Part shown: positions 7,896 to 47,089 of the stretch, one piece after another | How the letters are laid out: each line of letters opens with the position of its first letter | Position numbering within the stretch: position 1 is the stretch's first letter | From: an uncultured Gammaproteobacteria bacterium | Lineage (GTDB): Bacteria; Pseudomonadota; Gammaproteobacteria; CAVZZX01 | Assembly: GCA_963779865.1 (NCBI GenBank) | Contig: CAVZZX010000003.1 | Coordinates: 1,924,429 to 1,988,428 of the forward strand | Reading direction: 5' to 3' | Length of the DNA stretch: 64,000 nucleotides | The notes under the pieces: model-generated | Seen by the model: the letters and a program-made list of their open reading frames with translations, nothing else | Database searches by the model: none | Told to the model about the DNA's origin: nothing | Program-made: the position numbers and the translations under genes

Positions 7896-8011
7896 CCCGC
7901 CACTCGCCCGATTGACCGCCCCCCGGGCCGGTGCAATGATGCCCACGGGGGGGAAAACACATGCCGGCGATCCCGGGGGAGAAGCGCGGCATGGGCTCCC
8001 CTGCCTGAACC

Positions 8012-8035
8012 CATAACGACAACACATAACGACAA
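8012..8035. repeat. Tandem direct repeat cataacgacaa (2 copies, 13-bp period) in AT-rich leader
   Basis: cataacgacaaca cataacgacaata seen directly; AT-rich island in a GC-rich genome, about 15 nt upstream of the DUF898 gene start. Confidence 0.5.
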
Positions 8036-8049
8036 TAAAGGGGGGCGCC

Positions 8050-9117
8050 ATGAACGCGCAGAGCACCCACCGCTTCGCCCATCTCGGCACGGGCGGCGAG
8101 CTGTTCCTCATCTTCATCGTCAACCTGCTGCTCACCATCCTCACCCTGGGCGTCTACAGCTTCTGGGCCAAGAGCCGGGTACGCCGCTATCTGTGGAGTC
8201 AGAGCCGCTTCGACGACGAGCCGCTGGAATACACCGGCACCGGCCGTGAGTTGTTCGTCGGCTATCTGCTCGCCATGGGCCTGCTGCTGCTCGGCGTCCT
8301 CGCTCTGGTGCTGGTCGGCGCGCTGCTGGCGCAGGTGAACCCGTCCCTGGTGTTCGTGCCGATGCTGCTCGGCTATGCGGCGTTTTTCGTGCTGATCGGC
8401 GTCGCCATCCATCGCGCGGTGCGCTACCGGCTCAGCCGCACCCGCTGGCGCGGGATCCGCCTGGGGCTGGAGGGCTCCTCACTGAGGTACGCCGGGCTGA
8501 TGATCGGCTACGGGCTGCTCAGTGCCCTCACCCTGGGCCTGGCAATGCCCTGGATGCGCAGCCGCCTGTACGGCCAGATCGCCGGCCATGCCAGCTTCGG
8601 TTCGGCCGCGCTGCACTACGACGGGCGCGGCGGCCGGTTGCTGCGCCCGTTCATGCTGGTGTGGGTGCTCGGACTGGCCGGCTTCGCCGGCTACGCCGCG
8701 GTGGCGTTCTCGGTGGCGCTGCAGGCCCAACAGGCCGGCGCCCCGGCCGAGCCCGGCGCCATGGCGGCCCTGCCGCTGCTGTTGCTGCTCTTCTGGCTCC
8801 CGGCCGGCCTCGCCTGGCTTTGGTATCGCGCCCGCGAGCTGCGTTACTTTGCGGCGCACACCCACCTGCAGCAGGCCCGCTTCGCCAGCGACATCCAGGC
8901 ACGGGGCTTTCTGCGGCTGATGCTCGGCAACCTGGCGCTGCTGATCCTCACCGTGGGGCTCGCCTTCCCCTGGGTGCTCACGCGCTCCATGCGCTTCTTC
9001 GCCGCGCATCTGACGCTCGAGGGGCCGCTGGACTTCGCCGCCATCGCACAGAACACGCAGCAGGTGCCGCACACCGGCGAGGGGCTGTTCGAGGCCTTTG
9101 ACCTCGGTGCGCTCTGA
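8050..9117 (+). CDS. DUF898 (YjgN-like) family inner-membrane protein
   Basis: Multiple hydrophobic helices, repeated architecture; N-term pattern resembling YjgN family. Confidence 0.55.
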   Translation: MNAQSTHRFAHLGTGGELFLIFIVNLLLTILTLGVYSFWAKSRVRRYLWSQSRFDDEPLEYTGTGRELFVGYLLAMGLLLLGVLALVLVGALLAQVNPSLVFVPMLLGYAAFFVLIGVAIHRAVRYRLSRTRWRGIRLGLEGSSLRYAGLMIGYGLLSALTLGLAMPWMRSRLYGQIAGHASFGSAALHYDGRGGRLLRPFMLVWVLGLAGFAGYAAVAFSVALQAQQAGAPAEPGAMAALPLLLLLFWLPAGLAWLWYRARELRYFAAHTHLQQARFASDIQARGFLRLMLGNLALLILTVGLAFPWVLTRSMRFFAAHLTLEGPLDFAAIAQNTQQVPHTGEGLFEAFDLGAL

Positions 9118-9119
9118 GC

Positions 9120-10307
9120 TTGTCCGAACGCGCCGCCCAGGACGCCGGGCCGCACCACCCCGGGTCGTACCTCGACGGGCAGTACTACGACGGCCGCACC
9201 GCGGCCCGCCATGCGGTGACCGTCTGGCTGCGGGGAGCCTCGCTGTGCATCGAGGACGCGGCCCGCGCGGAGGAACGCGCGCACTGGAGCTATGCCGGCC
9301 TGCGCCTCTGCGAGGAGGTCCACGCCGGCGGCCCCGCCCGGCTGCGCCACGCCGAGGCGGGCGATGCCCGGCTGGTGGTGGAGGCAGCGTGCTTCGCGGC
9401 CCTGATTGAGCGGGCGCCGCAGCTGCGCCGCCGGCGCGTCGCCCGGCCGCTGGGCCTGCGCATCGGAGCCGCACTCGGCGTGCTGGGGCTGCTCGCGGGA
9501 GGCCTGGTACTGGGCGTACCGCGCCTGGCCGGGCCGCTCGCCCGCGCGCTGCCACTCGCATGGGAACGCGCCCTGGGGGCGCAGGTGGCTGCCGGTATGG
9601 AGGCGCAGACCTGTCACCAGCCTGCCGGCGAGGCCGCGCTCGCCGTGCTGGTGCAGCGGCTGGCGGCACACGCCCACAGCCCCCTGGCCTTCACGGTGCG
9701 CGTGCTGCAGGACCCCGACCGGCCGGTGCTCAACGCCTTCGCCGCGCCCGGAGGCCAGATCCTGATCTACCGCGGGTTGCTCGATTTCACCCACAGCCCG
9801 GACGAACTGGCGGGGGTGCTCGGCCACGAAATGGCGCACGTGCGCCATCGCCATCCCACCGCGGGGCTGATCCGCGCGCTCGGCCTGCGGCTGGCCGCCA
9901 GCGCGCTGTTCGGCGACCTGGGCAGCATCGGCGCCACCGCGGGCGGCCTGGGCGCCAGCCTCCTCGATCTCTCCTATGGACGCGATGCCGAGCGCGAGGC
10001 CGATGCCGGCGCCGTGAACATCCTGCAGGAGGCCGGCTATGACAGCCGCGGCCTGGCGCGCTTCTTCGAGCGCCTCGCCGCGGACAAGGAGGCCCCCGGC
10101 ACCGCCCTGCCCGCCCTGCTCTCCACGCATCCGCTCACCGCCGAGCGGATCGCCCAGCTGCGTCGCAGCGGCCGATCCGGGGCGGCGCCCCTCAGTCCGC
10201 GCCAATGGGAAGCGCTCCAGGCCATCTGTGGGCCCCCGGCCACCGGCGACGGCGGGCCGGCGAGCGCACCGGCACGAACAAATTCCTCCGACGGGGCAGG
10301 GACTTAG
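9120..10307 (+). CDS. M48 family metallopeptidase with N-terminal extra domain
   Basis: HEMAHVRHRH zincin motif (HExxH), downstream E; TM segment before peptidase; TTG start 2 nt after DUF898 stop. Confidence 0.65.
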   Translation: MSERAAQDAGPHHPGSYLDGQYYDGRTAARHAVTVWLRGASLCIEDAARAEERAHWSYAGLRLCEEVHAGGPARLRHAEAGDARLVVEAACFAALIERAPQLRRRRVARPLGLRIGAALGVLGLLAGGLVLGVPRLAGPLARALPLAWERALGAQVAAGMEAQTCHQPAGEAALAVLVQRLAAHAHSPLAFTVRVLQDPDRPVLNAFAAPGGQILIYRGLLDFTHSPDELAGVLGHEMAHVRHRHPTAGLIRALGLRLAASALFGDLGSIGATAGGLGASLLDLSYGRDAEREADAGAVNILQEAGYDSRGLARFFERLAADKEAPGTALPALLSTHPLTAERIAQLRRSGRSGAAPLSPRQWEALQAICGPPATGDGGPASAPARTNSSDGAGT

Positions 10308-10441
10308 CCGAGGGCGCCGCGCGCAGGCGCGGCTATCGAGACTCAGCCGCTTGATTTCACTACAATGTGCGCCTTTCGCGAGCGACCGGAACAGGGCGCC
10401 GCGCCGAATTCGTTGTGCCAAAAGCTTGTAAGGAGAAATCG

Positions 10442-12705: not shown

Positions 12706-13164
12706 CTACTCGAGGGTGAAATCGGAGAAGTCGTAGTCGATGCGGTTGTCCGCGACATCCAGCCCGGACTCCACGCGCAGCCCCGCGTCCTGGCGGCGCA
12801 GCCGCGCATGGTGGCGGGTCGGAATCTCGTCCAGGATCCAGCCCACCTCGCTGGGGTCCAGCACCCGCCCGTCGGCGCGGGTCAGGTGGCGTACCAGCAC
12901 CTGGTCGGCCTCCACGCGCAGCACCAGCGGCAGCGGCAATTGCAGGGGCAGCACGTGCTCCTGCACCACCTGCTCCAGGGGCGAGGGCCGACCGTGTGCC
13001 TGCCGCAGGTCGAGCCGGAAATAAGCGCCCCCGCCGGGCAGCTTGAGCAGGCGCGCCAACCAGTCGCCCTGAAAGCCGCGATGGACGATGATGCTGCGCC
13101 CGGCGAAGCGTTCGAAAAATTGCGCCAGCGGCGCGCCGCGCCGGCTGCGAAAAAGGCCGAACAT
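12706..13164 (-). CDS. Hypothetical protein
   Basis: ORF with good GC3, start at MFGLF; no motif recognised. Confidence 0.35.
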   Translation of the reverse strand: MFGLFRSRRGAPLAQFFERFAGRSIIVHRGFQGDWLARLLKLPGGGAYFRLDLRQAHGRPSPLEQVVQEHVLPLQLPLPLVLRVEADQVLVRHLTRADGRVLDPSEVGWILDEIPTRHHARLRRQDAGLRVESGLDVADNRIDYDFSDFTLE

Positions 13165-13351
13165 CGCTGTGCCTCTGCCGTCTCCCGGGCGCGGCATTAT
13201 AGCCGATCGACGCCGCTTCCGCGGGTGTTACACTGTTCGCGAGTGCCGCCCGGGTGTTTCAGCCACCTGCGTCGGGCCGCGGCGCGCGGCGGCGCCCCGG
13301 GCGTGTTCGGGCCTCACGGCCGCCATCGGCACCGCTTCGGCGAATCGGCAC

Positions 13352-14449
13352 ATGGACAAATTTCTCTACGCACACGCCGGCGGCGCCTCCGCGGCCGCCC
13401 TGCTCGACCGCTGCCTGACCGGGCTCGGGCCGGTCCCGCGCGAGGCCAATCTCGGCTTCATTTATGCCACCGACACCTTGGCGGACGAACTGCCGATGCT
13501 GCTCGAGGCGCTACGTGCCGGCACCGGCGTGGAGCACTGGGTGGGCACCCTCGGGCTGGGCATCTGTGCCACCGGCACGGAGTACTACGACGAGCCCGCG
13601 CTGGCGGTGCTGGTGGGTGACTTCCCGCCGGGCAGCTTCCGCGTCTTCCAGGGCCTGCCCGCGGCCGCCTCACCGGCCGGCAGCCACGGCAACGCCCGTT
13701 TCGCCGTGGTGCATGGCGATCCGCGCAACGGCAAGCTGCCCGAGCACATCGCCCGCCTGCCCGCCCTGATTGGCGATGGCTTTCTCGTCGGCGGGTTGAC
13801 CGCCTCGCAGGCCAGCTTCCAGCAGGTGGCCGACGGCCTCACCGAGGGACAACTCTCAGGCGTGGTGTTCGAACCCGAGGTCCGGGTGGTCAGCGCACTC
13901 ACCCAGGGATGCAGCCCCATCGGCCCGGTGCATACCGTGAACGAGTGTCAGGGCAACGTCGCCGTGCGCATCGACGAGCGGCCGGCCCTGGACGTGCTCA
14001 AAGAGGACATGGGCGAGCTGCTCGCACGCGATCTGAATCGTGCGGCGGGCTACATCTTCGCGGGCTTCCCGGTGCGCGGGTCCGACACCGGCGACTACCT
14101 GGTGCGCAACCTGCTGGGCATGGACAGCGCCCGCGGGCTGCTGGCCGTCGGCGACCGCCTGGAGATCGGCCAGGGGCTGCTGTTCTGCCGGCGCGACGCG
14201 CAGACGGCGGTGCAGGACCTGGAGCGCATGCTCGCCGACCTGAAGAGCCGCCTGCCGGGCCCGCCGCGCGGCGGCGTCTATCACTCCTGTCTCGGCCGCG
14301 GACACACTCTGTTCGGCGAGGCCTCCGAAGAACTCAGAATCATCGCCGAGGCGCTGGGGCCCGTGCCCCTGGTCGGCTTCTATGCCAACGGCGAGATCTC
14401 CGGCGATCGTCTGTACGGCTACACCGGCGTGCTCAGCCTGTTCGTCTGA
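13352..14449 (+). CDS. FIST domain sensory protein
   Basis: FIST-N/FIST-C-like pattern; start at MDKFLYAHAGG inside longer ORF (frame-derived coordinate). Confidence 0.55.
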   Translation: MDKFLYAHAGGASAAALLDRCLTGLGPVPREANLGFIYATDTLADELPMLLEALRAGTGVEHWVGTLGLGICATGTEYYDEPALAVLVGDFPPGSFRVFQGLPAAASPAGSHGNARFAVVHGDPRNGKLPEHIARLPALIGDGFLVGGLTASQASFQQVADGLTEGQLSGVVFEPEVRVVSALTQGCSPIGPVHTVNECQGNVAVRIDERPALDVLKEDMGELLARDLNRAAGYIFAGFPVRGSDTGDYLVRNLLGMDSARGLLAVGDRLEIGQGLLFCRRDAQTAVQDLERMLADLKSRLPGPPRGGVYHSCLGRGHTLFGEASEELRIIAEALGPVPLVGFYANGEISGDRLYGYTGVLSLFV

Positions 14450-37318: not shown

Positions 37319-37472
37319 GCGGTGTTCCCCGTCGTTGTGTTTTCTCAATGAGTGCGTGTTCCCTCTCCCGAGCTGCCGTCCCTTGCCGCCGCAGCACTGC
37401 TGCGCCGCAACGTTGCAGCGCCTACTTTAATACATCGAGCCCGATATTCCACCCTCGCTGCGCGACACGCGA

Positions 37473-46018: not shown

Positions 46019-47089
46019 TCATGAGGAGGGCGCGCTGAGCAGTCGCCGCACCAGCGCCGTGCCCCTGGCGAGCACCCCCTCGCGCCAACGGCGCGAGGAC
46101 GGACAGAACGCCGTGCGCAGCCGCCGCTTGCTCGGATGGTCCAGGGTGCCGGCGCCGTAGTGATGCCAGCGGTTCTCCTCGCGCATCGCGTGCAGCACGC
46201 GCAGTGCGCCGCGCGTGCCGAATTCCTGGGTGAGCGCGGTGACGCGCACCCCCGGCAGCCAGTGCACGAGGGCCGGCGCCAGGCCGCCGCGGTTGAGGTA
46301 GCCGCTGCGCATCCCCGGCTCGACCCACTGCACCCACCGTACATCGGGCCCGAGCCGCGCCTGCAGTGCGGCCCGCTCGCCGCCGGCGGCCTCGACGAAC
46401 AGGGTCTGCCGGCCACCTCGCCCCAGTCCGGTGTGCACGTCCACGGCCCACACCTGCTCCACGCCGCGCAGGCGCCGCTGCAACCACTGGCGATAGCGGC
46501 GCGGTCCCTCCTCCAGCTCGCGGCCGCCGTAGAACAGGCCCTTCGGGTACTCGTACTGGCCGCCCGCCACCGCCGCCTGCAGCGCGCGGAAGCCGTGGCG
46601 CAGCACGGCCCCCACGGCCTGGCGATAAAAACCGTCGGACGCCGGCGGCGAGGCGGGGTTGAGCAGCGGGTCCAGCGCCCGATAGAACGGGGGGGCGCCG
46701 CACCAGGCCTCGCCCGGGCCGGGGCAGTTTCGGTTCAGGTCCACGTTGTGCTCGTTGACGCGCCGCAGCCAGGCCATGCCGAAGGGGTTGAGGGCGTGCA
46801 CCAGCACCAGTGCCTGGTCGGCGGCGAGCGGCGGCGGCTCGGCGAGCAGCGCCAGCTGCACCGCGGCGCCCGCGAAACCCTCGACGCCGTGCAGGCCGCA
46901 GGAGTGCAGCAACACGCGCCCCGCCCGCGCCGGCCCCAGCCAGGCGATGTCGATCCCCAACGCCTCGCCGCGGGGGCCGCGGCCGGAGAGCAGCAGGCTG
47001 TCGAAGCCGGCACCGGCGGCAGCCGCAGCGCGTCGGAAGCGCTCGCGGGCCAGCGCATAATCGGGCGAGAACCGTTCCGCGGCGGGCAT
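46019..47089 (-). CDS. DUF2817 / M14 carboxypeptidase-like protein
   Basis: Zn-binding-like HSCGLHGVEG, succinylglutamate desuccinylase/aspartoacylase-like fold pattern. Confidence 0.55.
   Translation of the reverse strand: MPAAERFSPDYALARERFRRAAAAAGAGFDSLLLSGRGPRGEALGIDIAWLGPARAGRVLLHSCGLHGVEGFAGAAVQLALLAEPPPLAADQALVLVHALNPFGMAWLRRVNEHNVDLNRNCPGPGEAWCGAPPFYRALDPLLNPASPPASDGFYRQAVGAVLRHGFRALQAAVAGGQYEYPKGLFYGGRELEEGPRRYRQWLQRRLRGVEQVWAVDVHTGLGRGGRQTLFVEAAGGERAALQARLGPDVRWVQWVEPGMRSGYLNRGGLAPALVHWLPGVRVTALTQEFGTRGALRVLHAMREENRWHHYGAGTLDHPSKRRLRTAFCPSSRRWREGVLARGTALVRRLLSAPSS

Follow-up and report, generated by a model that had tools for sequence, protein, structure and literature searches.

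Introduction

Peptidase family M48 includes several membrane-associated zinc proteases. BepA (YfgC) is a periplasmic member in Escherichia coli that takes part in the quality control of outer-membrane proteins, LoiP and YcaL are outer-membrane lipoproteins, HtpX is embedded in the membrane with its active site in the cytoplasm, and OMA1 resides in the mitochondrial inner membrane. M48 peptidases carry a plug motif, H-P-x(4)-R, which was defined by Bryant et al. 2020 (PMC7950410); in BepA the plug gives the fourth zinc ligand and holds the enzyme in an auto-inhibited state (PMC7950410). For both BepA and OMA1, it is under active study what frees the M48 protease from its auto-inhibited state, and a membrane protein dedicated to the protease would be an answer of a new kind. 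Here, we describe an M48 metallopeptidase that is encoded together with a membrane protein of the DUF898 (YjgN) family in an uncultured gammaproteobacterium. The two genes lie on a stretch of 64,000 nucleotides (nt), called the window in the following (assembly GCA_963779865.1, contig CAVZZX010000003.1, positions 1,924,429 to 1,988,428 of the forward strand); positions are those of the window, and features are on its + strand unless stated otherwise.

We found no published functional study of the DUF898 family or of DUF7092, the N-terminal domain of the protease; the name 'YjgN' came up only as a linked marker (yjgN::tet) or in gene lists. A paper on biofilm formation by E. faecalis uses 'DUF898' for a 101-residue protein with a single unit. 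In a study on the urate oxidase PuuD (PMC4562309) the single 'DUF898' is a misprint for DUF989, the term used 14 times there, and could falsely link DUF898 to urate oxidation. Members of both families routinely receive the labels 'YjgN family protein' and 'M48 family metallopeptidase', and the window holds an ordinary example of a gene pair that is very widespread and catalogued in databases, but experimentally untouched. New here are the view of the pair as a unit, the view of E. coli YjgN as an orphan, and the predicted architecture of a PH-like domain, a membrane helix and a periplasmic, plug-regulated protease. The pair is present in tractable or clinically relevant organisms such as Acinetobacter baumannii, Sinorhizobium meliloti and the Rhodobacterales.

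Results

DUF898 and the DUF7092-type M48 protease are inherited as a pair

Calling of open reading frames (ORFs) gave an ORF of 355 amino acids (aa) with an ATG start at 8050..9117, which encodes the DUF898 protein, and one of 395 aa with a TTG start at 9120..10307, which encodes the protease. The stop codon of the former (TGA, 9115-9117) and the start of the latter (TTG, 9120) are separated by the two nucleotides GC (junction 9115..9122), exactly as a preliminary description of this DNA had read it.

In a survey anchored on the protease, 29 DUF7092-M48 homologues were aligned and one genome per species was scanned; the best 80 M48 loci were then searched in six frames with our own hidden Markov models for DUF898, the N-terminal domain and the M48 core. 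DUF898 was present in the locus of every M48 gene that has a DUF7092-type N-terminal domain (36/36). It was located directly upstream on the same strand in 35 of these loci and was intact in 34; at locus L022 it adjoins the M48 gene but is frameshifted, and at locus L041 the pair is interrupted by one gene. Where no N-terminal domain was detected, on the other hand, the M48 gene had DUF898 upstream in only 2/44 cases, and one of these two exceptions (L070) carries DUF7092 by Pfam. The association of the N-terminal domain with a DUF898 gene directly upstream (34/2/2/42 for the 80 loci) corresponds to a Fisher p of 8e-18, a value that ignores the relatedness of the species.

The sampled paired loci span Alpha-, Beta- and Gammaproteobacteria, Nitrospirota, Acidobacteriota and Rokubacteria. 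The reverse examination, anchored on DUF898, found an M48 gene downstream in all 13 genes examined outside the Enterobacteriaceae. These include genes from Nitrococcus, Trinickia, an 8-Mb genome, Qipengyuania, Sinorhizobium, Azoarcus, Methylobacterium, Roseinatronobacter, Magnetococcus and Acinetobacter, and also from Flavobacterium, Oleispira and marine Gammaproteobacteria, the sources of the homologues that come closest to E. coli YjgN outside the Enterobacteriaceae; with Flavobacterium, the adjacency is kept in Bacteroidota as well. The preliminary description would have given up its case if the two genes were not neighbours elsewhere, and in fact they stay adjacent in at least six phyla or classes. 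Longer M48 relatives with BepA-like TPR repeats also follow DUF898, with an overlap of 17 nt. Clustering of the flanks of 43 paired loci revealed no third conserved gene: at best, seven or fewer loci shared a neighbour, and these fell within Rhodobacterales or Bradyrhizobium, that is, within-family synteny. DUF898 and DUF7092-M48 are a self-contained two-gene module, and the pair, not the single gene, is the inherited unit.

The close spacing is shared as well. Junctions in 37 paired loci range from -17 to +25 nt, with 31/37 between -4 and +6 nt, and most of them take the form of ATGA, TGATG or a gap of 0-6 nt. The family as a whole is thus marked by translational coupling, which is no peculiarity of the genome in the window. 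The 'co-translation' that had been proposed for the two genes holds in the sense of translational coupling by termination and reinitiation, but not in the sense of co-folding.

The gene inserted at the acidobacterial locus L041 (1501-7059) encodes a TonB-receptor-like outer-membrane barrel of 1134 aa (CarboxypepD_reg + OMP_b-brl_4). It shares the strand of DUF898 and M48 and is separated from its two neighbours by 15 and 3 nt. The insertion hints at an envelope role, but is suggestive only.

Enterobacterial YjgN is an unpaired DUF898 protein

The YjgN clade of the Enterobacteriaceae is unpaired, as seen in E. coli K-12, a second E. coli record and Metakosakonia. In E. coli, yjgN is flanked by yjgM and valS and has no M48 neighbour. 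YjgN belongs to the same Pfam family as the DUF898 protein of the window and has kept the repeated hairpin motifs (N..TLG.Y.W). The clade has lost E60, G63, E67, R130, R134, R312 and Q334, and the GEG..D motif of the C-terminal tail is not alignable. All that has been lost is located on the predicted cytoplasmic side of the protein, in the beta hairpins, at the adjoining helix ends or in the C-terminal tail. With the protease lost from E. coli, its YjgN is a degenerate orphan, which may explain why little is known of the pair.

Two further observations concern these loci. In Metakosakonia (L097, 3501-6082), two DUF898 paralogues of 397 and 400 aa are arranged in tandem, with no M48 gene. A comparison of L085 (9731-13838), L097, L086 and the locus of P0074 showed that valS adjoins the orphan yjgN in E. 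coli and Metakosakonia and is found one to two genes away from a DUF898-M48-TPR pair in two alphaproteobacterial metagenome contigs. This recurring proximity may be residual synteny or coincidence.

The protease combines a PH-like domain, a membrane helix and an M48 domain

The N-terminal domain of the protease has an invariant D24-G25, and in front of these residues the TTG start is the sole in-frame ATG, GTG or TTG. A GTG at codon 33 comes next as a possible start, and its use would cut off conserved residues. The database record P0001 is identical to the protease of the window (395 aa, 100 % identity and coverage), and its length shows that the deposited annotation has the same TTG start. 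An ATG start that would move the peptidase into a transcription unit of its own, an objection raised beforehand, does not exist; no ATG separates the two genes.

Pfam assigned residues 18-90 to DUF7092 (PF23368; 36 bits against a cut-off of 24.5; E 2e-27 with our own profile) and residues 171-349 to Peptidase_M48 (PF01435; 116.9 bits against 20.3). The AlphaFold2 (AF2) model, with a mean predicted local distance difference test (pLDDT) of 86.7, has strands and a helix at 17-98, a single helix of 33 residues at 111-143 and then the helical M48 domain. According to the model, the DUF7092 domain (residues ~15-100, 9162..9419) is a PH-like superfold of the PH / PTB / EVH1 / RanBD kind, with a bent sheet of seven strands capped by a C-terminal helix. 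A membrane-spanning helix (residues 113-135, 9456..9524) is predicted from the model and from charge bias, and is followed by the BepA-like catalytic domain (residues ~145-372, 9552..10235). The zincin motif HEMAH and an extra N-terminal domain in front of the membrane helix had both been recognised in the preliminary description, and rightly so.

The DUF7092 domain is apparently tied to this architecture. A profile search gave 2077 cluster representatives (~2000 clusters at 50 % identity). The listed matches of ~350-400 aa all have the domain at the N terminus, and the complete proteins among the few checked with Pfam are M48 peptidases. In all, this exhaustive search gave the M48 architecture, fragments and one tandem duplication; the only other match was spurious. 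The duplication is found in P0242 (483 aa), in which two tandem copies of DUF7092 are followed by a membrane helix and an M48 domain. The spurious match, P0241 (5170 aa), tops the search by summing 21 weak repeat matches in a protein with many near-identical tandem repeats and was rejected.

The residues expected of an active M48 peptidase are in place. HEMAH (residues 236-240, 9825..9839) would supply two zinc ligands and the catalytic base (H236, E237, H240), and E291 (9990..9992), which aligns with the first conserved glutamate of the BepA motif EQEAD (E201 region), the third ligand. H236, E237, H240 and E291 align with zinc-site residues of both BepA and the structure 3c37. The auto-inhibitory plug motif is H337-P338-LTAE-R343 (10128..10148), an M48 signature. 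H236, H240, E291, H337, P338 and R343 are found in 157/157 complete family members and E237 in 156/157. By sequence, the protease has the complete M48 catalytic signature together with the plug, and is predicted to be catalytically competent.

Two cysteines are specific to the family: C165 (9612..9614) and C370 (10227..10229), the latter within W363-x-A-L-x-x-I-C. Both occur in 152/157 members and are jointly missing from 3 (Fisher p 1.6e-5), and of the M48 proteins without the N-terminal domain 43/54 have neither. This co-conservation suggests a disulfide and hence an exported M48 domain. The charges flanking the membrane helix fit this picture: the mean net charge in the 157 sequences is +3.2 for the 15 residues before the helix and -0.7 for the 15 residues after it, which places the N terminus inside. 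The TPR-bearing relatives also point to a periplasmic M48 domain. Taken together, a cytoplasmic DUF7092 domain and a periplasmic, BepA-like catalytic domain are strongly indicated by these sequence features, and the topology left for checking in the preliminary description can now be predicted with the N terminus inside.

The DUF898 protein is predicted to expose its soluble parts to the cytoplasm

The DUF898 protein (355 aa, 8050..9117) matches PF05987 from end to end (E 5.5e-87, 292.5 bits against a threshold of 28, profile positions 1-335 of 336). Its AF2 model (pLDDT 94.2, predicted template modelling score 0.89) has two long helical hairpins (65-129 and 195-269), three helix-turn-helix units and ten short strands. 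The helix-turn-helix units carry a TLGxYxxW motif and span residues 15-50, 144-180 and 284-320; their TLGxY turns are uncharged. The protein consists of 2.5 internal repeats (hhalign probability 98/96/97 %), each unit being made up of a helix-TLGxY turn-helix hairpin, a beta hairpin, a long transmembrane (TM) hairpin and a second beta hairpin. N25, T32, G34, Y36, W39, R45, T301 and G303 are at least 90 % conserved. We found neither a solved structural relative of this fold nor a sequence or fold similarity to any transporter family.

Lysine and arginine residues are concentrated on the strands and the adjoining helix ends, with none in the TM-TM turns, which are only 1-5 residues long in most members. 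Since the positive charges are on the side of the strands and absent from the hairpin turns, the soluble parts are predicted to be cytoplasmic. Based on the model and the distribution of charges, a cytoplasmic location of the ten-strand sheet of five beta hairpins, of the acidic tail and of both termini is strongly indicated, with almost no exposure to the periplasm. The acidic C-terminal tail (residues 321-355, 9010..9114) is modelled at lower confidence (pLDDT 59-80) and contains a mean of 6.4 aspartate plus glutamate residues. It has a conserved motif, G-E-G-x-x-E-A-F-D-x-G, in which E344 and G345 are invariant and G343 and D351 at least 89-90 % conserved.

The closest short DUF898 homologues (P0123-P0132, 314-320 aa) lack about 40 residues of the second long hairpin (~213-250 in the protein of the window), and this hairpin thus need not cross the membrane fully in every member. 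A common origin of DUF7092 and the beta hairpins of DUF898 was considered as well and rejected (hhalign probability <=0.2 %).

Local setting of the pair

The start codon of the DUF898 gene is preceded at a distance of 4 nt by the Shine-Dalgarno-like sequence AAAGGGGGG (8037..8045). Further upstream, in the 154-nt gap 3' of purD, a consensus scan detected one promoter-like site, TTGACC-17-AATGAT (7912..7940), against 0.1 expected. It is possible that the pair has its own promoter here, for which the evidence from the consensus scan is weak. Between the two, 17-42 nt 5' of the DUF898 start, a 13-nt direct repeat, AAC(C/A)CATAACGAC, occurs twice in tandem (8008..8033). It is AT-richer than the flanking DNA, and both exact copies are found only here; the sole other match in the window (37331-37343) has 2 mismatches. 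The tandem repeat may be a putative binding site for a regulator. A scan for terminators found none on the + strand. A GC hairpin at 10316-10333, 3' of the protease gene, was considered as an intrinsic terminator and rejected, having no U-tract and a z of -1.0 against shuffled sequence.

The genes flanking the pair are unrelated to envelope biology: purH and purD are located upstream and a phosphoribulokinase gene downstream, and rimO, encoding a radical-SAM methylthiotransferase (UPF0004 + Radical_SAM + TRAM), is nearby on the opposite strand. Beyond rimO, a protein of 453 aa with FIST_N/FIST_C sensor domains is encoded at 13088-14449 (+), with no apparent link to the pair. Elsewhere in the window, ARAGORN called a 'tRNA-Asn' of 99 nt (46029-46127, - strand) with the anticodon at position 39. 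A scan of the whole window at the Rfam gathering thresholds gave no tRNA or other RNA family, and the call is probably false.

Discussion

How could a DUF898 protein and a protease of this kind work together? We propose that they form a complex in the inner membrane: DUF898 would tether the plug-controlled periplasmic protease or regulate it, and the protease would act on proteins of the envelope. We give this proposal an even chance. It is strongly indicated that both genes share a single message, on which the protease is translated by coupling to the stop of DUF898; their products would be two subunits of a single inner-membrane machine, found widely among diderm bacteria. DUF898 has no periplasmic mass, so a contact would have to be made in the membrane or on the cytoplasmic side, where DUF7092 is predicted to sit. 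It may involve the PH-like domain and the beta platform or the acidic tail of DUF898, helix against helix, or both. Short peptide motifs are the usual ligands of PH-like domains such as PTB, EVH1 and FERM-F3, and by analogy the conserved tail motif of DUF898, modelled at low confidence, would be a natural candidate ligand of DUF7092. The residues lost in the orphan YjgN clade fit, if weakly, such a contact on the cytoplasmic side. By this contact, DUF898 could position the protease or switch it on, and the protease would then cleave misassembled or regulatory periplasmic proteins of the envelope, as BepA does at the outer-membrane assembly machine. The preliminary description had thought of membrane protein quality control in general, or of a signalling protease; since the catalytic domain is most likely periplasmic and BepA-like, quality control of envelope or periplasmic proteins is the better guess.

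Several points weigh against this proposal. The contact between DUF898 and the protease is inferred, and the proposal does not explain how a cytoplasmic contact would act through one helix on a periplasmic active site. The topology itself is deduced from charge bias, the cysteine pair and the secondary structure of the AF2 model. A role in envelope quality control draws on the similarity to BepA, the TPR-bearing relatives and the one acidobacterial locus with the barrel gene. The losses in YjgN are a single evolutionary event in one clade, hence anecdotal. Finally, no natural fusion of DUF898 with M48 was seen among the top 120 matches of either family or the top 150 matches of DUF7092.

The lack of fusions among the matches listed would suit two proteins that both act in the envelope but do not touch, the junction serving to fix the ratio of their expression. 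Translational coupling by itself is no proof of a complex, and DUF898 persists without the protease in Enterobacteriaceae. Yet the adjacency is kept from Alpha-, Beta- and Gammaproteobacteria to Nitrospirota, Acidobacteriota, Rokubacteria and Bacteroidota while the other neighbours change, as is typical of interacting subunits, and DUF7092 occurs in essentially no other architecture; we therefore regard mere co-expression as quite unlikely. Somewhat better placed, although still unlikely, is the idea that DUF898 is a small transporter or channel and that the protease serves the same pathway, for example by making peptides for uptake or by maturing an export. The model indeed has three re-entrant hairpins with uncharged TLGxY tips between the long TM hairpins, the residues that are at least 90 % conserved persist in the orphan E. 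coli clade as well and so point to a function independent of the protease, and a fold without solved relative is compatible with transport. However, similarity to any transporter family is missing in sequence and fold, and the second TM hairpin shrinks to ~25 residues in the closest short homologues, which is a poor fit with a conserved pore. A transporter also leaves unexplained why the protease has a cytoplasmic PH-like domain that is all but confined to this pairing.

A protease and its dedicated substrate often have genes that lie together, and the conserved, flexible tail of DUF898 (pLDDT 59-80) resembles a recognition motif. DUF898 could thus be a substrate or a cleavable anti-factor whose cutting releases a signal, a case of regulated proteolysis. 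This is very improbable, since DUF898 exposes almost nothing to the periplasm: its tail and soluble parts are predicted to be cytoplasmic and the periplasmic turns comprise just 1-5 residues in most members, whereas the active site of the protease is predicted to be periplasmic. A further idea is a reversed topology, with a cytoplasmic M48 domain that would degrade misfolded membrane proteins brought by DUF898. HtpX, an M48 protease of membrane-protein quality control, is built in this way, and the protease has weak similarity to the HtpX models of NCBIfam. But such an orientation would violate the positive-inside rule (+3.2 versus -0.7), the co-conserved cysteine pair is typical of exported domains, the TPR-bearing relatives mirror the periplasmic BepA, and a folded N-terminal domain of 100 residues is unlikely to be exported without a signal peptide. 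Of all the explanations considered, a reversed topology is the one that we believe in least.

Returning to a complex of DUF898 with a periplasmic protease, it is tempting to go one step further and to picture a control device across the membrane. DUF898 would sense the state of the cytoplasm or the membrane, the PH/PTB-like domain would grip the acidic tail, and this would release the plug of the periplasmic BepA/OMA1-like protease. We put this forward tentatively, as a possibility that is more probably wrong than right. If true, the device ties a condition of the inner membrane or the cytoplasm to the turnover of envelope proteins, and it would have been overlooked because E. coli kept only an orphan DUF898 protein.

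How does the protease compare with the described members of its family? As defined by sequence, it is a member of peptidase family M48 with all features present, and it is not BepA, HtpX, LoiP or YcaL. HtpX, LoiP and YcaL share the family, the catalytic motifs and the plug motif with it. However, HtpX has another membrane topology, and the protease of the window reaches at most 36 bits against its cut-offs of 245-422; for LoiP, which like YcaL is a lipoprotein of the outer membrane, the score is 58.7 bits against a cut-off of 365. The M48 peptidase Q74D82 of Geobacter sulfurreducens (PDB 3C37) is a structural-genomics entry, in which the solved chain of 253 residues comprises the protease domain only and shows no DUF7092. 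The defence-system models of PADLOC gave no match to either protein of the pair at E <= 0.01.

Closer in layout is OMA1 of the mitochondrial inner membrane. As described in the literature, it is anchored in the membrane with its M48 domain on the side of the intermembrane space, which corresponds to the periplasm; this is the same arrangement of N terminus in and M48 domain out that we propose here. Its activity and stability are influenced by a disulfide that links two conserved cysteines; this likeness to the protease of the window is by description only. The cysteines of yeast OMA1 (272 and 332) are close in numbering, whereas C165 and C370 flank the whole catalytic core, and the disulfides are probably not equivalent. 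To our knowledge, OMA1 has no DUF898 partner.

The protease has most in common with BepA. Both have the same HExxH and glutamate ligands and the HPx4R plug, the predicted periplasmic location agrees with that of BepA, and some relatives of the protease carry BepA-like TPR repeats at the C terminus. The two are nevertheless distinct: the identity is 26 %, and the score against the BepA equivalog model (NF052400) is 91.3 bits, with a cut-off of 570. The protease of the window has no TPR family in the Pfam scan and ends 25 residues past the protease domain. In place of a signal peptide, it has a PH-like domain of ~100 residues and then one membrane helix as an anchor. It has the family-specific cysteine pair, and it is encoded with DUF898, which BepA is not. 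Judged by these analogies, the protease would work most like a BepA that is tethered to the membrane.

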